DNA from: Candidatus Berkelbacteria bacterium RIFCSPLOWO2_01_FULL_50_28
GTDB taxonomy: Bacteria > Patescibacteriota > UBA1384 > 2-12-FULL-50-11
DNA length: 64,000 nucleotides
Assembly: GCA_001774395.1 (NCBI GenBank)
Contig: MEZX01000001.1
Span: 27,643 to 91,642, forward strand
Direction: 5' to 3'
The notes under the pieces are model-generated. The model was not told the DNA's origin. It did no database searches and worked only from the letters and a program-made list of their open reading frames with translations. The translations under genes and the position numbers were made by a program. Shown piece after piece: positions 5,290 through 28,314 of this stretch (positions are counted from its first letter, which is position 1; each line of letters opens with the position of its first letter).

Positions 5290-5390
5290 AACTTTATCTT
5301 AACAGACAGCCCAGAGTAATTGAAAAGCGGGGACACTCCATCGCACCTCGTTGTGCAACTTCGTGTTCCCGCTCGGTTCCCTCTGCAAGC

Positions 5391-5879
5391 CTAGTGGGCC
5401 CGCAACCATCTTGGTAGCCATCTGCTACCGATGATCTTGCCCGACAGTCGCCCATCGGGGGCCTCCCACTCAATCACGTCACCAACCGTCCGGCCGATGA
5501 TAGCGGCGAACAACGGCGTATTCCTTGATACGCACGTCACGCCTATAGACTGAGGGGGGCAGCACGGCGCCAGGAGCCTTTCGATGACTTCGGATTTTCC
5601 CCCGAGGGGGTCTTTCACGCGAAGTCTGACGATGTCTCCCAAAACCATGACCTTCTTCGGACGCGGTCGATTCCAGGGCAAGCCCTTCACCCAAGGAACG
5701 AACCTCGTGCCGTCTGCGGCGTCCCAGACCGCAAGGTTGTTGAGTAGCTCCTCCCGTGGGGAGTTGAAAGCTAACTCTTGTTGAATCGCGCTCCGATCGA
5801 CTTCGTTGCTGTCGACCGGTAGTCTTGGCGTCTTTGTCGCCTTTGTTGACAAGCTGGCTATCATCGCCATTGTCGTCAT
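5391..5879 (-). CDS. GreA/GreB C-terminal (FKBP-like) domain protein, Rnk-like
   Basis: The C-terminal region (VSRNTPLFAAIIGRTVGDVIEWEAPDGRLSGKIIG) resembles the GreA C-terminal domain. GC-rich. The N-terminus is unlike GreA. Confidence 0.45.
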   Translation of the reverse strand: MTTMAMIASLSTKATKTPRLPVDSNEVDRSAIQQELAFNSPREELLNNLAVWDAADGTRFVPWVKGLPWNRPRPKKVMVLGDIVRLRVKDPLGGKSEVIERLLAPCCPPQSIGVTCVSRNTPLFAAIIGRTVGDVIEWEAPDGRLSGKIIGSRWLPRWLRAH

Positions 5880-14782: not shown

Positions 14783-15049
14783 CTACTTCAATTCGCCAGA
14801 GATTAGCTTGAGCTTCTTGGCTTGGGACCAATCCTTGATTTGGATTTCTCTTTTTCTGGCAAAAGACTTATTTGGAATAGCAGGCGAAATGTATACAAGA
14901 TTAAACGGACCTTGCTCAGTAGCCATCATCGCTCCCTCACCACGATTATGCTCTTGAATTCTGCGATCTGGATCTGTAGTTATACCAGTATAGAATCGGC
15001 CGGTTCTAGCTTTAGCAATGTAGAGAAACCACGGCTTTGACATACGCAT
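14783..15049 (-). CDS. GIY-YIG nuclease-family protein (UPF0213-like)
   Basis: WFLYIAKARTGRFYTGITTDPDRRIQEHN matches the GIY-YIG core (YxY...YxG...R..EH). Confidence 0.7.
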   Translation of the reverse strand: MRMSKPWFLYIAKARTGRFYTGITTDPDRRIQEHNRGEGAMMATEQGPFNLVYISPAIPNKSFARKREIQIKDWSQAKKLKLISGELK

Positions 15050-15299: not shown

Positions 15300-16126
15300 A
15301 TGAGCAAGGCGAACCATTCCGATTTAACCGCATTCTATCAACACATCTCCGAAATGGGCAGACTGGAGGTTGCCAGGAGGCGAGTCCAGGGAGAAACTAT
15401 CGGTCAGCCGCCGCTGGGGTTTCGAAAGGTCCAGGTGAATGGCAAAACCACCAACGCTCCAGATCCAGAGACCTTCCCTTTGTTGGTGCTGGCCCTCCAG
15501 ATGCGCAAAGAAGGCAGTACGCTCCGTGAGATCTGTTCGGTCATGTCCAAAAAGGGCTTGCAGTCGAAGCGTGGCAATCCGATTCAGCCAAACGGGATGC
15601 ACAAGATCCTCAAAACTTTCATCCGTTTGATTGGAGAAGCTTTTGTGGATACAACTTCTTTTGACAGCATCAGCAGCCAAGCTGAACTTAGCAAAGCAGC
15701 ATGACCAACGAGATGCAAGATTTCAAACGAGCATACTTCGCCCAAACGGGCCGAATGGCTCGGGAAGCAATGGCGGCCAAAGCCCGTAGCGGCATCTACC
15801 CGCTCAAGCTCCCGATTGGTTACAAGCGCGTTTTCGCCGAAGGCGAGGAACGAATCGAGCCCGATCCACAGACAGCCCCGATCATCAAACTCGCCTTTGA
15901 GCTAATCGCTCGCAAACGATCCTCGTTGTCCAAGGTGCTGGCAACTGTCAGAGCCAAGGGACTGAAGGGCCATTCAGGTCAGCCCATCAGCTTAAGCGCC
16001 CTGCATCGGCTCCTGACAAACTCGTTCTACTTTGGAGAGTACAAGTACAACGGGAGTGTCGTGCAAGGGAACTACCGGCCTCTGGTCAACCGAGGTGTTT
16101 GGAATCTTGTCGGCCGCTGCTCTTAG
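15300..16126 (+). pseudogene. Decayed large serine recombinase (two consecutive recombinase-domain fragments, no catalytic resolvase domain)
   Basis: ORFs 15300-15704 and 15701-16126 each carry recombinase-domain-like sequence (GQPPLGF..., LPIGYKRV...YFGEY...G.WNLV). This is similar to the central domain of the intact recombinase at 26728-28314. The N-terminal Ser-catalytic domain and the zinc ribbon are absent. Confidence 0.55.
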
Positions 16127-16227
16127 CGAGAGACGAAGACGGCCCGGATAGCTTCTAGGGTCCATCCCCAGGAATCACAAGGCCGGAAGGTGCGAGAGTC
16201 GTTGGTCGCAAGAATCCGGGTCAGGTT

Positions 16228-17022
16228 CTAGACCCCACCGTCTATCAACAGTGTCTTCCCCATGGTGCCCTTTGGGATTATTCTAATGCGACATCCCAAC
16301 TCTGCTGCGACCATGCGAAGATCTTCAGCTGGTCGACCAATCAACTTCTGCGAAATGCGTTCCCACAGTTCTCGCACATCGTCCGGCGATATTGCCCAAA
16401 TGCGCTGCTGAAGCCCGGCAAACTCAGCGCGAGTTTCGTCGTCACCAAGGATATGCAGATCCCAGAACCAAAGAAGATACGTTGGCAAAGGCCCGAATTT
16501 CTGCTTGCCCCGCTGATGGGACTCGGGGTTCTGTTCCGCGTATTCGATCGCATGCCGGAATCTAGCCATGGCAGCGGGACGGACTGGTGCGTGAAGGCCA
16601 AATTCATCCAACTTCTTGTGCACCTCCAAGTCCAAGACTATTGAGGAGAGACTGTGCCAGAATTCTTTTATTGAGACGGGATCACCAGTCATTCCCTGAA
16701 CATAGTCTACTACGCCAGCGCCATCTGCCGCTTGAAGGTGGTGGATTAGCTCTTCTCCGAGAGCAGCTTGGAACTCTTCGTCAGGCAATTCAGGCTTGAT
16801 CCAAATGGCGATGTACGCGTCAACGTTTGGCTCAGCCAATGCGCTGTGGATCGGATCAACCTCCCTCTGAAGCTCCTGACTTGCGTTGGCATATGGAGCA
16901 ATGCGTAATGTCTTCTTGGGGAATGTCGCCATTACCTCGGAGATTACGGGCAACAGCACATCATTAACTCGGTGCCCTAGAAATTCCATATGACTAAGCA
17001 ACAATGCGCAAGGAGCCGCCAT
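16228..17022 (-). CDS. Hypothetical protein (island cargo, downstream partner of 17041-17787)
   Basis: 264-aa ORF 18 nt downstream of the preceding gene on the same strand. No recognisable motif. Confidence 0.45.
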   Translation of the reverse strand: MAAPCALLLSHMEFLGHRVNDVLLPVISEVMATFPKKTLRIAPYANASQELQREVDPIHSALAEPNVDAYIAIWIKPELPDEEFQAALGEELIHHLQAADGAGVVDYVQGMTGDPVSIKEFWHSLSSIVLDLEVHKKLDEFGLHAPVRPAAMARFRHAIEYAEQNPESHQRGKQKFGPLPTYLLWFWDLHILGDDETRAEFAGLQQRIWAISPDDVRELWERISQKLIGRPAEDLRMVAAELGCRIRIIPKGTMGKTLLIDGGV

Positions 17023-17040
17023 ATCTGCAAAAGGCTCTCA

Positions 17041-17787
17041 TCATGAGTACTGCGTCATTTCATAAGTTAGCGAACCGTATCGGGACAGGTTCTCTTGAAT
17101 TTGTCCAATTAGATGTTCAAGGCCGGGCATATCGGGTTTTACGACACGTTCCCATGTTTCCGTTCCCGGTTGTACTGTGGAGACATGGTTGTCATTCTTA
17201 AACAAGAAGCCACGAGCAAGAACACAAATCAGTTCGGGTCCATAGGTGTAATAGTCATTATTGTACAGTGAGGCCGAACGGCCGATGAACTCAATGATGG
17301 ACTCCCAGGACGGAGCGTCAAATGCGATCACGTAGCAGTTTGCTCGTGTCGGAGGAATCGGAACTCGCTCATCTCCGTGCCCCGCGCGATAGAAACCATG
17401 ATGTGGGGTTTTCTGCAGGTCCTTCGTTCGAGCCACCTTCGCCAAAGCCAATGCCAATCCGCCATCCGGTCCAAGGGAGAGTATGGATTTGCTCTCGATC
17501 AAGCTCGCCGCCTCCACTGGCACCACAGACTCCCCGCCAACCTGGAGACGACCAATTTGGTTGTCAACTAGAACAATGTCAGCCTCGTCCGAAGAGGCAC
17601 CCCTGCTGTCAACTACCTCCCCTTGTTCAACGCCCAGCCGCTGGGGGACATGTTTCTGAAGAAACTCTTTGATAAGCTCTTCTCGCGCCCGCCCTTTTGA
17701 AAGAGGTGCTGTTAGGATGCCAGCCGCTTTCGCTTGACTCAGCATGGCTTGTTCCAGGTGAACATAGTATTCACGCTGACTTGTCAT
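17041..17787 (-). CDS. Hypothetical protein with PD-(D/E)xK-like nuclease signature
   Basis: GEVVDSRGASSDEADIVLVDN ... EAASLIESKS gives a D...D...ExK arrangement typical of restriction-endonuclease-fold proteins. Start set at MTSQREYY; the upstream extension is Cys-rich and may not be translated. Confidence 0.4.
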   Translation of the reverse strand: MTSQREYYVHLEQAMLSQAKAAGILTAPLSKGRAREELIKEFLQKHVPQRLGVEQGEVVDSRGASSDEADIVLVDNQIGRLQVGGESVVPVEAASLIESKSILSLGPDGGLALALAKVARTKDLQKTPHHGFYRAGHGDERVPIPPTRANCYVIAFDAPSWESIIEFIGRSASLYNNDYYTYGPELICVLARGFLFKNDNHVSTVQPGTETWERVVKPDMPGLEHLIGQIQENLSRYGSLTYEMTQYS

Positions 17788-17958
17788 TTCAAACCTCAAA
17801 CCCACGGAAACGCAGTCTGCTTTGCATTGGGGCCCATTATACCAATCAAACCTGAAGAGACAACTGTTGCATATTCCAACGAATTCGAACGCCTGTTCCA
17901 ACTGAAGTCGAACGCGCATTCCAACTGAAATCGAACGCTTTGAGCACCGTCGTTGGGA

Positions 17959-19297
17959 TCATCGGTCTTCAGGCCTTCGTTGTCTGGTCGAGCTTACCGG
18001 TTGGGTCCTTGTCGAGCCCTTGCTTTTGCGCAGGGATTCGCCTTGGATCTCGAGCCGGTAGGCGTAGTGGACGAGTCGGTCGAGTGTGGCGTCGGCCAGG
18101 GTCGGATCTCCGATGGCCTCGTGCCAGTGCTCAAGCGGGAGTTGCGCGCAGATCATGGTGGACCTGCGGTCGTACCGGTCGTCGAGGATCTCGAGCAGAT
18201 CGCGCCGGTGGACGTCCGAGAGGGGCGCGACGAGCCAGTCGTCGAGGATGAGCAGATCGATCCTGGCGAGGGAGGCGAGCCGGTTGCGGTACGTGCCGTC
18301 GCCCCGACCAATCTCCAGATCGTGCAGGAGCCTGGGAGCTCTGAAGTAGCGGGTGTCCGGAATGGATCGGAATGGGTGTCCGCTTTGAATTGGAATCACT
18401 GTCCGCTTTGCGTCGGAACGCGCAGCCCGCAACCCAGTCTCAACCTGATGACTTCTCTGATCTTGCGCACGGACAGCTTCTCCTGTCCATCCCGACCACC
18501 TCGTTTCAATTGTGAGAGGCCAAGGATCGCCGATGCGGAGTAGGGCATCGGGCGCCGGGCGAGGATCCCGGAGCATGCCGATCGCTCATTCCGGGGCAGA
18601 ACCGAGAAACGATCGACATGGCCCGGAACATGCGATCGCTTTGGGCCGCTGAATGCAAGCGTTCGTGAATAATAGGAGTGCAATGCCTTTTCTGTCTTCC
18701 TCTCCAGCACTCTTGCCGGAGAAAGGACTGCGCTCAAAACGAGGCAAAAATGTGTTACCTATGTAGAAATCCATGACAACAGCTTGACGCCATGCTCCTT
18801 CAAGCATAGAATGGGTGTGTCGGCGCCGGTTGAAAAGTGCACCGCTGTGCTGGCCCAATAGTGCACCACGCGCGCACGCAGTGTACGCCGGTTTCCCATC
18901 CGGATGAGATTGCGCGAGCAATCTGGGAATCGGGGGCGAGCGAAGCGATGCCCCCTTCCGTGCCTCAGGCCCTGGTTTTGGGGTTGTCTCTCGCCTTGGC
19001 CAGACTGTACGCGAGCCGGTAGCTCTGCCCGTTCATCTCGAGGATGTGCACGTGGTGCGTGAGCCGGTCGAGCATCGCGTGCACGAGGGCTTCGGAGGCG
19101 AGCACCGAGATCCACTCCTCGAAGGGCAGGTTCGTCGTAAGGACGATCGAGCCCCGCTCGTAGCGGTCGGAGACGACGTCGAAGAGGAGTTCGGCCCCGC
19201 TTGCCGGAAGCGGCACGAACCCGAGCTCGTCGAGGACCAGGAGGTCGACCTTCCGCAGAAGGGCGCGCGTGCGGCCATGGGTGGTAGATGAAAGCAC
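17959..19297 (-). mobile_element. IS21-family insertion sequence remnants (two IstB C-terminal fragments flanking an IstA N-terminal fragment)
   Basis: ORF 17959-18576 (RIDLLILDDWLV ... DRLVHYAYRLEIQGESLR) and ORF 18965-19297 (VDLLVLDELGFVP ... DRLTHHVHILEMNGQSYR) are both IstB helper-ATPase C-terminal halves. ORF 18396-18737 carries an IstA-like N-terminal HTH (KIREVIRLRLGCGL). All are truncated. GC is very high. Confidence 0.6.
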
Positions 19298-20481: not shown

Positions 20482-21279
20482 TCAGTATAGTTTCTCATCG
20501 GCCAAACACACATTATACACGCCAAGTCGGCGTTCATAGAAATGAATCATAGTGTCGATGCTTGTCGTAATGTTGTCCACCAGAGACAGTGCCTGTTTCA
20601 TGATGGGTCCGTGAGTGTCACCGTCGAGTTGAATATGTGCCCTTAGAAACGCACAATAGCGATCAAATCGCGGATCGTTAATCTTCAGGATCGCCTTCTC
20701 AAGATTGTCGAAGGCTGTTGTTAGGGTAAGTTCCCTTAGCGCTACTGTCGAAAGTGCCCTCTGATAGGTTCCCGCACAACTCTCACTAAAAACCATGTAA
20801 TCGATTGCCTTCGGATGAAAGCCCTCGCGTTTCATCAATATTTGGAGATTTCCGGCCGCGACACTAGCAACTAGTGCCTCGATCGGGCCAGTGTCAATAC
20901 CAGCGTCCTGTGCTGCCTCCAACATGGCCACATAATGGGGCCCGCACTCAGTCCGCTTTGTAGGTATGTTGTTTGTGGACAGTTCTTCGTCCGAAAGAGA
21001 TAACAGCAAGTGGAGGAAGGTCCCATCCTCTTGAACCGCGAAAGGATGCTCTGGCAACGCAGATAGATAACCCCGAAGACACCCTAAGAGATTACCGTAG
21101 AAGCATACGGTAAACAGAAGGCTCGCACGTACCATGTTGTCGATTGAGCGATCCGGGTGCACCAAGTTGACTGCCTCGTGATCGTAAATGCGCCGCGTAA
21201 CCGCTTCCAAACGCGGGTACTTGGCATCAGCTTGGAAGCTGCCTGGGAAGTCCAAGAAGGGCGACTGTATGGGTGTCAT
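20482..21279 (-). CDS. Hypothetical protein translationally coupled to the ABC ATPase gene (possible all-alpha / heme-oxygenase-like fold)
   Basis: 265-aa ORF. Its start overlaps the upstream ATPase stop by 4 nt (ATGA). No motif could be assigned with confidence. Confidence 0.5.
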   Translation of the reverse strand: MTPIQSPFLDFPGSFQADAKYPRLEAVTRRIYDHEAVNLVHPDRSIDNMVRASLLFTVCFYGNLLGCLRGYLSALPEHPFAVQEDGTFLHLLLSLSDEELSTNNIPTKRTECGPHYVAMLEAAQDAGIDTGPIEALVASVAAGNLQILMKREGFHPKAIDYMVFSESCAGTYQRALSTVALRELTLTTAFDNLEKAILKINDPRFDRYCAFLRAHIQLDGDTHGPIMKQALSLVDNITTSIDTMIHFYERRLGVYNVCLADEKLY

Positions 21280-22019
21280 GCTGTTTCGTCCTCGGTGAGT
21301 TCGTCCGATGCAATCAGAAACTCTCTAAGTCGCGGGGAGGTGGGACTTGACAGAATCGAAACGCCACCAACTTCGTGGAGTCTCCCGTGATCAAGGAAGG
21401 CTACCCGATCCGTGATGCGGCGAACAAACGGAATGGAGTGGGAGACGAGAATGACGGCGGTGCCTTCATCCCGGAGGTTTGTGATTGTTTGCCGAAGTGT
21501 TCGCACATGCTCGACATCAATGGCGGCCGTTACTTCGTCCAGTAGCAGAACCGAAGGCTTCAGCGCAAGTGCCCTACATAGGGCGAAGAGCTGGCGTTGA
21601 CCACCCGAAACCTGGTTTGGAAACCGGCTGGCGAGCTCAGAGATCCCAAATCGGGCCATAAAATCAATTGCGCACTTGACCGCCGGTCCGCCCGGCTCCT
21701 TGCCTATTGGAAGCATGACATTGTCGCGCAGTGTCAGGTGCGGCCACAGGCAAAGCCCCTGAAAGACCAGCGTAACGGTGGGCCAGGGCCGGTTTGTGCG
21801 TATTGGATCGCAAGGGAACTTATAGTGGAAGCCGCTAATGGCCAATGACCCCTCATCGGCAGCATCGATTCCAGCGATAATTCGGAGCAACGTGCTCTTA
21901 CCGGCACCGCTTGGGCCGACGATCCCCGTCACCGTTCCTGCCTCCACATTTATGGAGACGTCATCGAGAATGACATTCCCTCGAAGCACTTTCCTCAAGC
22001 CCTTTGCGCACACAACCAT
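21276..22019 (-). CDS. ABC transporter ATP-binding protein (polar amino-acid importer type)
   Basis: Walker A GPSGAGKST, signature LSGGQRQ, Walker B LLLDEVTAAID. Confidence 0.85.
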   Translation of the reverse strand: MVVCAKGLRKVLRGNVILDDVSINVEAGTVTGIVGPSGAGKSTLLRIIAGIDAADEGSLAISGFHYKFPCDPIRTNRPWPTVTLVFQGLCLWPHLTLRDNVMLPIGKEPGGPAVKCAIDFMARFGISELASRFPNQVSGGQRQLFALCRALALKPSVLLLDEVTAAIDVEHVRTLRQTITNLRDEGTAVILVSHSIPFVRRITDRVAFLDHGRLHEVGGVSILSSPTSPRLREFLIASDELTEDETA

Positions 22020-22679
22020 CTAAGTCTCGGAGTAATCCCGGCTAACATGCTTTTGAAGAACGTTGGCCACAATATAGACGGGCACGGTTGCCAAAAGGAA
22101 AAATAGCGCCAACGCGGTGTAGATTTCCACGGGTTTGTAGATTTGAGCGTTGATCCGCTGGGCCGCTCGGAAGACTTCGTCAACTGAAATGAAGCTCGTA
22201 AATAGGCTGGCGTGAAGCATATTCATCTGGACGATCAGAATTCCCGGCAAGGCGTGGCGGGCGATCAAGGGGAGCGTGATCCTCCAAGAGATCGTCGAGC
22301 GTGGCAGACCACAGACGAGGGCGGCCAACCTATACTGGTTCGGGCATTCTACGTAACACTGCCGCCAGATGTCTGCCACCCAAAAGACATTCAACGTCGC
22401 CAAAGCAACGATAGAAGTGACCCTTGGGTCCACGACGATACCGAGCATATACTGTGCGGGGTAATGAAGCCAAAACAGCCAGACAACGATCGGGATACCG
22501 GCAAGACCAATGGCAAGGCAACGGACGGGGACGCCAACGCTTAATCTAAACCGCCCAGCAGCAACACCGAGAGGCGTCCCCAACAGCAGACCAATACCCC
22601 AGATGCAAGTGCACAGCAACATCGTCGTTCGCAAGCCGCCGAGAAATTCGGACGAGTGCTCTGTGAGGATCTTTAGCAT
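22020..22679 (-). CDS. ABC transporter permease (polar amino-acid family)
   Basis: Multi-TM protein with a conserved EAA-like loop region (ARHALPGILIVQMNMLHASL). Position between the SBP and ATPase genes. Confidence 0.75.
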   Translation of the reverse strand: MLKILTEHSSEFLGGLRTTMLLCTCIWGIGLLLGTPLGVAAGRFRLSVGVPVRCLAIGLAGIPIVVWLFWLHYPAQYMLGIVVDPRVTSIVALATLNVFWVADIWRQCYVECPNQYRLAALVCGLPRSTISWRITLPLIARHALPGILIVQMNMLHASLFTSFISVDEVFRAAQRINAQIYKPVEIYTALALFFLLATVPVYIVANVLQKHVSRDYSET

Positions 22680-22694
22680 AGTATGAATCCTCTG

Positions 22695-23564
22695 CTACTG
22701 TGATGCAAATGGAGTGGCAACTCGATAGAAAAGAAGGCTATCGCCTTCATATTTCTTGATTATCTTGTCAAGTGCACCGCTATATTGAAGCTCCTGCAAC
22801 GAGTTGTCAATCATAGATTTGAACTGAGGCTCGTTCTTGGGCATGATAAACACGTCCGCAAAGATGCGGAGTGGCTTGTCGACCGCAAGATTCTTCACTG
22901 ATCCCGGATTGCTTGAAAGGAATCGCATCCCCTGGTAGGGTTCAGCAAAGAAGACATCCGCTTTCTTTCCGACGATGTCCAGAAAGAGCTGAGATTCGGA
23001 GGTATGGTCAGGATAGGAAACGATTTTGGCGTTCGGAAACTGGGTTTGAGCGATCAGCATCGGTGTTGAACCATCAATGGCCGCGATTCGGATGTCAGGG
23101 TCGTTCAAAGAGGCCCAGTCGTTTGTCGGAGCGATTCGAGATTCACCTGGTCGAACCCAGATGCCGATTCCGCTGTAGTAAGCGGGCACCGATAGGGTTG
23201 CGAGTTTGCCGCGGGCGGCGTTCGCCCAAACGCCCACCCCGATCATGTCGTAGCGTCCGGTTTCAAGACCCTCCAGAAGGCTTGCCCAACTGACTTCCTC
23301 GTTGAACTCAACCTTGAGCTTGAGGTTCTTCGCCATCTCCCGCAGAGAATCGGGAAAGATTCCCGAAACTGCCTTGGTCTTGGGGTCGACTATGCCCGCA
23401 GGGGGATAATTGACGAAGGCTGCACGTATGACCCCGGAGTCGATAACGCGTTGGTAGGCGGAGGTTCCTCCGACAGCCGGAGACTTGCTTGGTTGGCAAC
23501 CCAAAACCGCCAATACCATCAATCCAACGGCGACCCCGATCCGAGTTCTGCTTGACTTTCTCAT
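22695..23564 (-). CDS. ABC transporter substrate-binding lipoprotein (SBP family 3, amino-acid binding)
   Basis: Lipoprotein signal (LAVLGCQPS). Family-3 SBP-like sequence. First gene of the operon. Confidence 0.75.
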   Translation of the reverse strand: MRKSSRTRIGVAVGLMVLAVLGCQPSKSPAVGGTSAYQRVIDSGVIRAAFVNYPPAGIVDPKTKAVSGIFPDSLREMAKNLKLKVEFNEEVSWASLLEGLETGRYDMIGVGVWANAARGKLATLSVPAYYSGIGIWVRPGESRIAPTNDWASLNDPDIRIAAIDGSTPMLIAQTQFPNAKIVSYPDHTSESQLFLDIVGKKADVFFAEPYQGMRFLSSNPGSVKNLAVDKPLRIFADVFIMPKNEPQFKSMIDNSLQELQYSGALDKIIKKYEGDSLLFYRVATPFASQ

Positions 23565-26727: not shown

Positions 26728-28314
26728 ATGAGATATATTCTTTACGCCAGGAAGAGTAGCGAGTCTGAGGAACGCCAGGTCCAGAGCATCGACGATCAAC
26801 TCCGCGTGGTTCGAGACTTCGCCAAGAGGTCCGGTCTTGACGTGGTCGCCGAATTGACCGAGGCGCATTCCGCCAAAGCGCCCGGGACACGACCGGTCTT
26901 TGCCGAACTCCTCGCCCGGATCGAGCGAGGCGAAGCCGAAGGGATCGTCTGCTGGAGTATCAACCGGCTGGCCCGCAATCCCGTCGATTCTGGTCAGTTG
27001 AGCTGGCTCTTGCAGCGAGGCGTTCTCAAGTCCATCCGAACCATCGACCGGGAGTATCTGCCCGAGGACAACGTCCTGCTGATGGCGGTCGAGTCGGGCG
27101 TAGCCAACCAGTACATCCTCGATCTGCGCAAGGCCGTCATCCGCGGCATGGAAGGCAAGGCCGCCCGGGGTTGGATTCCCAATCGACCTCCCCAAGGGTA
27201 CGGCGTCAATCCGCTGACCAAGGAGATCGATCCCATCGAACCGCAGTTCCAATTGCTTCGACAGGCCTGGGATTTGCTTCTAACCGGCGCCTACACGGTG
27301 CCCCAGATACGATCAAAGTTACAATCCTGGGGCTACACCTATGGGAAGCTCGGTGCACCAGCTAAGCCCCTCTTTGCCGAATCTCACCTCTATCGAATCT
27401 TCGACAACCGCTTCTACTGCGGCTCTTTCACCTTTCGCGGCCAGACCTACCAGGGCCGGCACCGGGTGATGGTCAGCCCAGAGGAGTTTGATCGAGCCCA
27501 GGGGATCTTACACAAAGACAACCGGATTCAGCCCCAGAGGCATGAATTCCCGTTCACCGGACTCATCCGTTGTGGGCGCTGCGGTTGCCTGGTCACCGCC
27601 GAGCGCAAGATCAAACACTACAAGACGACCGCCCGAACGGCGGCCTACGAGTACTACCACTGCACACACCGCAAGGGTGACTGTAAAGAGGTCAGCGTCA
27701 CCGGCCCATATATCGACTCGACCATCGCCTGCGAACTTGAGAGCGTCCTGATCGATCCGGAATTCGGCCAATGGCTCCTCAAGGCCTTGGAACGGTTTTG
27801 GGACGAGCAGCCTCCGGTTGACCCCAAATTGATCAAACAGCACCAAGAACACGTTCGTGCGACCGAACAGAAACTCGAACGATTGATCCAGCTTAGGCTG
27901 GCCGGGGAACTGGACGCCCAGGAGTTCAGCCGCATCAAGACCCAAACTCAGGGAGAACTGGCCGATGGCCGAAGACAGCTTGAGAGTTTGTCAAAACGAG
28001 CCTCAACCGGACGACAGGCTCTCATCAATGCCGTTCGGTTCGGCCTCGATGCCCCGCGGCATTTTGCCGAAAACGACACTCATCTGAAAAGGTATGTCGC
28101 GACGATGTTTGGCATTCGCTACGTTCTCACTCTGGGAAAGCTGGAAATCACACCGCATCCGCTGCTGACGCAATTGGCCGCGTTAGAACCTCCAAAATCG
28201 CCACGCAATATGGTTGGAGCCGGGGCTTTGCGCCCCGACGCTCCCATTGAGTGGAGCTGGCGGGAGTTGAACCCGCGTCCGAAAACAAACGAACCAAATC
28301 ATCTACAAGCTTAG
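26728..28314 (+). CDS. Large serine recombinase (integrase/resolvase)
   Basis: N-terminal resolvase catalytic domain (YARKSSESEERQVQSIDDQ ... RLARN), recombinase domain (GWIPNRPPQGYG), zinc-ribbon Cys cluster (CGRCGC...YYHC...C), C-terminal coiled-coil. 528 aa. Confidence 0.85.
   Translation: MRYILYARKSSESEERQVQSIDDQLRVVRDFAKRSGLDVVAELTEAHSAKAPGTRPVFAELLARIERGEAEGIVCWSINRLARNPVDSGQLSWLLQRGVLKSIRTIDREYLPEDNVLLMAVESGVANQYILDLRKAVIRGMEGKAARGWIPNRPPQGYGVNPLTKEIDPIEPQFQLLRQAWDLLLTGAYTVPQIRSKLQSWGYTYGKLGAPAKPLFAESHLYRIFDNRFYCGSFTFRGQTYQGRHRVMVSPEEFDRAQGILHKDNRIQPQRHEFPFTGLIRCGRCGCLVTAERKIKHYKTTARTAAYEYYHCTHRKGDCKEVSVTGPYIDSTIACELESVLIDPEFGQWLLKALERFWDEQPPVDPKLIKQHQEHVRATEQKLERLIQLRLAGELDAQEFSRIKTQTQGELADGRRQLESLSKRASTGRQALINAVRFGLDAPRHFAENDTHLKRYVATMFGIRYVLTLGKLEITPHPLLTQLAALEPPKSPRNMVGAGALRPDAPIEWSWRELNPRPKTNEPNHLQA
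28252..28280 (-). other. tRNA 3'-end fragment (T-arm + acceptor 3' strand): putative att remnant overlapping the recombinase 3' end
   Basis: Reverse complement is GGACGCGGGTTCAACTCCCGCCAGCTCCA, i.e. T-stem GCGGG, T-loop UUCAACU, T-stem CCCGC, acceptor strand CAGCUCC, discriminator A. No matching 5' half or D/anticodon arms were found. Confidence 0.6.

Follow-up and report, generated by a model that had tools for sequence, protein, structure and literature searches.

Two adjacent genes on the minus strand of a 64,000-nucleotide stretch (the window) of contig MEZX01000001.1 from Candidatus Berkelbacteria bacterium RIFCSPLOWO2_01_FULL_50_28 encode the proteins that we call p1 and p2. Based on sequence comparison, p1 is predicted to be a divergent, full-length member of the NucC/DUF6602 family, a PD-(D/E)xK, Mg-dependent DNA endonuclease whose catalytic site is intact. 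The second protein, p2, belongs to a very rare family that is undescribed in every library used, and on balance it is probably a divergent zincin-like metallohydrolase. We tentatively read the pair as the defence cargo cassette of an integrative element, in which a cyclase-independent NucC-like effector would be co-transcribed with a modular zincin-like control element; the evidence for this reading is comparative only. The genes and their key motifs are located as follows.

17041-17919, minus strand: p1, an open frame of 292 residues, with an internal ATG at 17787 that gives a product of 248 residues (17041..17787)
17488..17580, minus strand: p1 catalytic core, from D70 (17580-17578) to E98-S-K100 (17496-17488), equivalent to NucC D73...E104-A-K106
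16228-17022, minus strand: p2 gene, 264 residues, or 253 residues from the ATG at 16989 (Met12)
16732..16755, minus strand: putative metal-site helix of p2, E90-E91-L-I-H94-H-L-Q97, defined by alignment column counts
16618..16632, minus strand: second motif of p2, D131-x-x-x-H135, with D131 in 16/16 and H135 in 11/16 sequences

A NucC-type nuclease and its apparent loss of the ligand pocket

The assignment of p1 is supported by matches in Pfam, PADLOC and the PDB. The protein scored 53.9 bits against Pfam DUF6602 (cut-off 27, E 1.8e-14), matched the PD_DExK (2.7e-18) and NucC effector (1.8e-13) models of PADLOC and, among PDB entries, matched NucC alone (7zgv, 6p7o, 6q1h, 6uxf), with a best E of 3e-14 when a four-sequence profile was used. 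A first-pass annotation of the window had proposed a D...D...E-x-K signature and a restriction-endonuclease fold for this product, and all of these matches agree with it; the PADLOC run that it had suggested as a check gave no match to p2 at E <= 1. Because residues 30-231 of p1 align to the NucC of a bona fide cyclic-oligonucleotide-based anti-phage signalling system (CBASS) from Rhizobium pRL1 (28% identity, E 3e-14), the homology covers the whole protein. The residues of the signature (D60, D70, D75, E98 and K100 in the 248-residue numbering) are homologous to the NucC active site, and when four members of the p1 subfamily were aligned with four true NucCs, the segment A-D70-x27-E98-S-K100 fell onto the NucC motif ID-x30-EAK. 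The position of D70 is occupied by a glutamate in one p1-subfamily member. In NucC, the active site was described as ID73-x30-E104-A-K106, and the D73N substitution yields a dead mutant (bioRxiv 10.1101/694703).

A tblastn search of plasmids with p1 retrieved bona fide NucCs, themselves DUF6602 proteins (L026-L029), and a cyclase is encoded alongside each of them. Three (L027-L029) are part of type III CBASS operons composed of cyclase, HORMA-like, Trip13-like ATPase and NucC genes, accompanied by a divergent pair of helix-turn-helix (HTH) and ImmA/IrrE genes (CapH/CapP). Two of these three have a tyrosine recombinase gene at most 2 kb downstream of NucC, which echoes the recombinase-adjacent position of p1-p2. 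The fourth, from Rhizobium leguminosarum pRL1 (L026; CP090116.1 811395-819964), is a minimal cyclase-NucC pair (PADLOC Cyclase 1e-87, NucC 1e-94). Its 251-residue cyclase gene overlaps the NucC gene, a 581-residue protein with no assignment is encoded 35 nucleotides further on, and this CBASS sits beside NucS, DUF4238 and serine protease genes; NucC itself is annotated there simply as a hypothetical protein.

NucC is a homotrimer that hexamerises upon ligand binding and represents the textbook case of nuclease gating by a cyclic trinucleotide. Its contacts with cyclic triadenylate (cA3) are made by Arg53, Tyr81 and Thr226/Val227, and the gate-loop latch by His136/Tyr141; Tyr81 and Thr226/Val227 are each needed for activation by cA3 (bioRxiv 10.1101/694703). 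We compared these contacts in the eight-sequence alignment described above. Arg53 is retained as R50 in p1, and the gate-loop position carries a loop of equal length in the p1 subfamily, with an invariant tyrosine (Y133) opposite His136 and Gly/His opposite Tyr141. Tyr81 is replaced by Ile, Ser, Ser and Arg in the four p1-subfamily members, next to a two-residue deletion. In addition, a seven-residue deletion present in all four takes out the GTVPMID segment bearing Thr226/Val227, with residual uncertainty owing to the low identity of the C-terminal alignment. Neither a CD-NTase nor Cas10 was found by PADLOC scan among 60 open reading frames (ORFs) spanning the window or among the island ORFs, and no cyclase was seen near the p1 homologues.

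On these comparisons, p1 appears to lack both the ligand pocket and the cyclase association that characterise the NucC family. Because its subfamily has lost the cA3 contacts and no cyclase is encoded nearby, p1 is not expected to act as a usual effector of CBASS or type III CRISPR. It would have to be controlled by other means, or be self-regulated in the manner of Damona. This anti-phage system of the Vibrio cholerae superintegron consists of a single DUF6602 gene and is often located in prophages and mobile elements (bioRxiv 10.1101/2024.07.02.601686). The p1 subfamily thus seems to represent a new ligand-pocket-less branch of a known effector family.

The p2 family, its conserved site and its neighbourhoods

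Searches of Pfam, PADLOC, NCBIfam, PHROGs and the sequences of PDB entries gave no match to p2. Among 5.8 billion proteins, a word-indexed search returned only one identical copy and one homologue of 72% identity; when 1.84 billion cluster representatives were searched exhaustively with HMMER, 20 family members were recovered at E <= 1e-3, of which about 15 are full-length (250-290 residues). None were found in IMG/VR, among INPHARED phages or among PLSDB plasmids. The conservation within this family is enzyme-like: E50, E91, H94, Q97 and D131 are invariant, and H17, W220 and a Y-I-A-I-W-I strand just N-terminal to the motif helix are nearly so. Within the helix, E91, H94 and Q97 are present in 17/17 sequences. 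Position 90 is a glutamate in 14 sequences and a histidine in three; the three are distant members with a canonical HExxH (SHEVLHH, SHELVHF and RHELIHF), and p2 itself reads EELIH. Located 41 residues past E90, D131 is a candidate third metal ligand.

The AlphaFold2 (AF2) model of p2 is confident (predicted local distance difference test score, pLDDT, 91), and Foldseek, which the first-pass annotation had named as a check on both proteins, identified no significant structural neighbour for it. The N-terminal half consists of five helices and a 3-4-stranded sheet, consistent with the described CapP peptidase domain (bioRxiv 10.1101/2022.04.27.489752). Strand Y70-I75 precedes helix 81-99, which bears E90/E91/H94; D131 is located on helix 115-140, and the model is all-helical past residue 115. 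On this strand-plus-helix scaffold, the [E/H]90-E91-x-x-H94...Q97...D131 site resembles that of HExxH zincin peptidases such as ImmA, IrrE, CapP and SprT. Several weak similarities point in the same direction. Individual family members matched DUF2268 (a predicted Zn protease), PhageMetallopep, DUF6782, Peptidase_M78 and eCIS_core in Pfam at E 0.004-0.3, one member reaching E 0.2 against M78. Among viral models (BFVD), Foldseek returned SprT-like, IrrE-like, "Peptidase" and PolyVal metallopeptidase entries at probability 0.6-0.9 over 75-100 residues; in the PDB, IrrE ranked fifth, at a non-significant E of 1.6. When p2 was aligned by hhalign to CapPs from CBASS loci, E90-E91-x-x-H94 fell on CapP H83-E84-x-x-H87 (E 0.074, not significant alone), with the upstream strand and an "LP..F" segment in register too. 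In characterised CapP, zinc is coordinated by H96/H100/E129 and E97 acts as the base (bioRxiv 10.1101/2022.04.27.489752).

Membership of p2 in the M78/CapP family was considered and rejected, as no score reached threshold, no GAF domain is present and there is no HTH partner, no HTH gene being adjacent to p2. The first-pass annotation had called this protein unassignable, which is not the whole picture: it founds what is proposed to be a very rare zincin-like family, strongly associated with defence islands.

This association was derived from eight independent p2-family contexts, most of them from short contigs. In the window, p2 is located downstream of the NucC-like gene. The homologue of 72% identity (L001, 5466-6245) lies on a phage-like contig that also encodes GP88, ThyA and, convergent to it, an intact 502-residue serine recombinase. 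In a Chthonomonas metagenome-assembled genome (L012/L016, P0007), a member of 48% identity is a solo gene next to LmuA-like (PADLOC 3.5e-9), ApeA-HEPN and long SMC-type genes. Another, of 31% identity, sits 87 nucleotides behind the gene of a 328-residue TIR protein (L014/L015), and one with 28-43% identity overlaps the end of cas1 by 17 nucleotides (L017/L018; Pfam Cas1 7.8e-46). An HExxH member follows, after 133 nucleotides, a gene fusing restriction endonuclease (REase) and APAZ domains and a short prokaryotic Argonaute (pAgo) gene (L022/L023; PADLOC pAgo_I 3.6e-122). In L021 and L025, the p2-family gene comes after genes with no library assignment, and in L024 it is solo. A recognised immune gene is therefore found directly upstream and co-directional in 4/8 contexts, with immune genes adjacent in a fifth. 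At immune-gene base rates of 2-10%, at least four such contexts out of eight would arise with P = 1e-5 to 5e-3, and the family accordingly appears to be defence-island-associated.

Two of these loci showed additional features. The Cas1 locus (L017 1317-3851 and L018) is a compact operon of three genes whose stops and starts overlap, encoding an unassigned 216-residue protein, Cas1 and the p2-family protein in the usual place of cas2; neither cas2 nor an array can be seen on the 3.9-kb L017 contig, whose opposite strand carries a small zinc-ribbon-like ORF and a 163-residue ORF. In L022 (1-4400), the REase-APAZ gene, a 482-residue class I pAgo and the HExxH p2-family gene are followed by a gene for a 307-residue protein in which a PD-(D/E)xK motif (PDLYG...IAIECKG) can be discerned by eye, with no library match.

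Gene starts, transcription signals and the surrounding island

The signals around the two genes and the elements that flank them are listed here.

17797-17794, minus strand: Shine-Dalgarno GAGG, 7-10 nucleotides 5' of the ATG at 17787, read directly from the sequence
17836..17863, minus strand: putative promoter, TTGTCT-16-TATAAT with an extended -10 TG, matching the consensus at 10/12 positions in a scan
15300..16126, plus strand: decayed large serine recombinase in two ORFs of 134 and 141 residues, with Pfam Recombinase on the 141-residue ORF
17959..18576, minus strand: IS21 IstB remnant (Pfam IstB_IS21), immediately 5' of the p1 promoter region
18965-19297: second IstB_IS21 remnant (Pfam)

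Both ORFs are intact and co-directional, in line with the minus-strand gene pair described in the first-pass annotation. That annotation had also preferred the 248-residue form of p1 (17041-17787), which is indeed the likely product because of the GAGG, of the promoter-like site inside the longer ORF and of the homologue lengths, which range from 243 to 253 residues. The promoter-like site lies about 50 nucleotides 5' of the p1 ATG, within the 292-residue frame, and the extension beyond 17787, up to 17919, is probably not translated. The proposed 18-nucleotide spacer between p1 and p2 applies if p2 starts at 17022; it becomes 51 nucleotides with the start at 16989, that is Met12, which is the start point of every p2 homologue. 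A scan across 15900-18300 found no terminator-like site, and no promoter-like site between p1 and p2. The locus recurs in 17 identical metagenomic contigs from several samples, which evidently derive from one organism and do not count as independent evidence. Comparison of p2 with its 72% homologue gave rates of nonsynonymous (dN) and synonymous (dS) substitution of 0.18 and 1.43 (dN/dS 0.13), showing that p2 is a gene under purifying selection. Because the locus is identical on 17 contigs and p2 has this dN/dS, neither p1 nor p2 is a chance ORF.

The flanks agree with the decayed recombinase and IS21 remnants reported previously, and the recombinase fragments are convergent with p2. An intact 528-residue large serine recombinase (Resolvase, Recombinase and Zn_ribbon_recom domains) is encoded at 26728-28314 of the window, some 9 kb away from the decayed recombinase, and the island may be bounded by, or made of, two elements. 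The same island contains, at 20482-23564, an operon for an SBP_bac_3 periplasmic binding protein, a permease, an ABC ATPase and a 265-residue HamA_HO-like (haem-oxygenase-like) protein, which looks more like metabolic or transport cargo than defence. The island ORFs at 19.3-30.7 kb gave no true defence matches, the PADLOC matches there being ABC-transporter components only. Just outside the decayed recombinase, at 14783-15049, a small GIY-YIG nuclease gene (88 residues) lies beside an Asn-synthase-like gene, in a stretch (13-15 kb) of lower GC content (0.43-0.46, vs about 0.52 in the surroundings). Of the 60 scanned window ORFs, one, outside 19.3-30.7 kb, matched the RmrA models of PADLOC (E 6e-7) and one matched HTH_VI (7e-10); an ordinary Xre-type regulator may account for this.

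Proposed explanation, alternatives and relation to known systems

In the explanation that we tentatively favour, p1 and p2 would be co-transcribed from the promoter near 17850, and p2 would act as a modular hydrolase that depends on metal and is most likely a peptidase. It would control the effector encoded upstream of it, as the Zn-peptidase partners of toxins (RmrA of RosmerTA) or the signal-responsive ImmA/IrrE/CapP proteases do, either by restraining the nuclease or by activating p1 upon an infection or DNA-damage cue. DNA would be degraded as a result, and the infection would be abortive. A precedent for a defence pair made of a toxin and a Zn-peptidase exists in RosmerTA (bioRxiv 10.1101/2022.05.11.491447). 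We also considered a broader proposal, in which the p2 family would serve as a portable trigger or safety switch behind unrelated effectors (NucC-like, TIR, Cas1 and short pAgo) and p1-p2 would be a nucleotide-signal-independent, protease-gated NucC system. This we regard as unlikely.

The strongest rival, a serious possibility although short of likely, is that two independent defence genes share one transcript, p1 being a Damona-like single-gene nuclease and p2 a separate single-gene module, for defence or regulation, with a tendency to insert 3' of other defence operons in islands. Several observations weigh against the cassette and in favour of this alternative. No p2-family gene accompanies three p1 homologues (49, 44 and 43% identity): one comes after a LuxR/propeller regulator, one before a HisA/HisF-like gene, and one is followed by opposite-strand genes. 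Homologues of p2 are likewise found alone, and the variety of genes upstream of them is what island stacking would produce. On the L001 contig, a 49-residue ORF (5329-5478) corresponds to the p1-like 5' untranslated region and about 37 first codons (42% identity over 45 residues, with a 24-nucleotide stretch 96% identical) and runs into the p2 homologue; this arrangement is a natural deletion of the nuclease core in which p2 outlived p1. Such an orphan p2 would fit a type II toxin-antitoxin pair, in which a co-expressed partner neutralises the toxin, but is not diagnostic of one. The pairing is therefore not conserved. Homologues of p1 and p2 co-occur only in this lineage and, as the p1 remnant, in L001, and p2 homologues are elsewhere found behind TIR, Cas1 and pAgo, so the co-occurrence of homologues, which the first-pass annotation had proposed to analyse, weakly supports its nuclease-plus-partner module. 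What stands of that claim is that the locus, in its mobile-element island, plausibly encodes a defence or toxin module; the pairing itself is poorly borne out. Damona, moreover, demonstrates that DUF6602 proteins can defend as single genes. Against independent genes, 6/8 contexts place the p2-family gene downstream of its neighbour in the same orientation, and its 17-nucleotide overlap with cas1, its position 18-51 nucleotides after p1 and the lack of a terminator-like site in the scanned region are more operon-like than random stacking would be. On the favoured explanation, the p1-p2 partnership would be of recent origin and optional rather than ancient and obligate.

The remaining alternatives are less likely. 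ImmA-type proteases are typically integrase-adjacent, as in immR-immA-int of ICEBs1, and p2 could be an ImmA/IrrE-like regulatory protease governing excision or induction of the element together with the adjacent serine recombinase, with p1 as unrelated cargo. The convergence of p2 with a serine recombinase in both the window and L001, and its weak M78/IrrE-like signature, fit this idea; we nevertheless consider it improbable, given that there is no adjacent HTH repressor gene, that other p2-family genes stand behind TIR, Cas1 and pAgo with no recombinase in view, that the model is C-terminally all-helical with no GAF domain, and that the serine recombinases of the window and L001 are only about 31% identical (31-33% by tblastn) vs 72% for p2. 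An orphan, cA3-activated NucC that responds in trans to a CD-NTase or a Cas10 from another part of the genome, with p2 irrelevant, would be compatible with the full-length NucC homology of p1, with R50 and with the gate-loop-like segment that keeps the invariant tyrosine. The absence of Tyr81 and of the Thr226/Val227 segment from all four subfamily members, and of any cyclase from the 64 kb or from the surroundings of the homologues seen, renders such an orphan highly improbable. Finally, the split recombinase and IS21 fragments next to the pair might suggest non-functional, decaying junk of a dead mobile element, but with both ORFs intact, all catalytic residues present, the dN/dS of p2 and the same locus in 17 contigs across several samples, this is scarcely credible.

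Taken as a whole, p1-p2 is a credible candidate antiviral module on comparative grounds. The p1 subfamily, maintained with neither ligand pocket nor cyclase, would show how NucC-type effectors get re-wired. The p2 family combines a position outside Pfam, PADLOC and PDB with a confident, unmatched predicted fold and an immunity-type gene neighbourhood, and such a neighbourhood signature is the criterion behind most new defence-system discoveries. In the novelty claimed for the pair in the first-pass annotation, the nuclease itself has no share, as it belongs to the known NucC/DUF6602 effector family that includes Damona; p2 would found a very rare zincin-like family. If p2 is truly a portable regulator of unrelated effectors, it would be a new logic element in bacterial immunity, and as a stand-alone defence gene it would still represent a new family. 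Its rarity (about 20 representatives) limits the general impact.

Compared with the characterised NucCs (PDB 6P7O, 6Q1H, 7ZGV), the cA3-activated endonucleases of type III CBASS and type III CRISPR, p1 shares the fold family (Pfam DUF6602) and is collinear over about 200 residues, with the catalytic D...ExK and the equivalents of Arg53, D63, D78 and E97 conserved and a loop of equal length standing where the gate loop would be. It differs in its identity of only 24-28%, in the replacement of Tyr81 and in the deletion of the Thr226/Val227 segment, and it has p2 next to it instead of a CD-NTase, HORMA/Trip13 or Cas10 partner.

CapP, ImmA and IrrE (M78), of which CapH-CapP regulate NucC-containing CBASS, resemble p2 in size (about 260-295 residues), in an N-terminal strand-helix in register with HExxH, in a third acidic ligand (a candidate one in p2) about 30-40 residues further on, and in being encoded near NucC-type nucleases and other defence systems. 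The sequence and fold similarity is not significant, however (hhalign E 0.07; Foldseek IrrE E 1.6). In p2, EExxH...D takes the place of HExxH plus Glu, the C-terminal half is all-helical and not HTH-like plus GAF, no CapH/ImmR-type repressor gene is present, and the gene is located downstream of the effector, not divergently upstream as for CapP. RosmerTA and other toxin-antitoxin systems with COG2856-type Zn-peptidases share with p1-p2 the two-gene layout of a toxic effector and a Zn-peptidase-like partner, with variable toxins and a conserved partner. In contrast to RosmerTA, p2 has no RmrA model match (PADLOC, E <= 1), no M78 Pfam match and no HTH domain, its candidate first metal ligand is a glutamate, and the effector is a NucC-like nuclease. 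The p1-p2 pair thus resembles toxin-plus-Zn-peptidase designs, yet it fell outside them in every membership test made with sequence models, domains and neighbouring genes.

In architecture, the closest described case to p1 is Damona. Compared by domain description and not by sequence, the two have the same three domain matches (DUF6602, Cas PD_DExK and CBASS small endonuclease) and no cyclase. Damona is a single gene, whereas p1 is accompanied by a second gene with which it would be co-transcribed.

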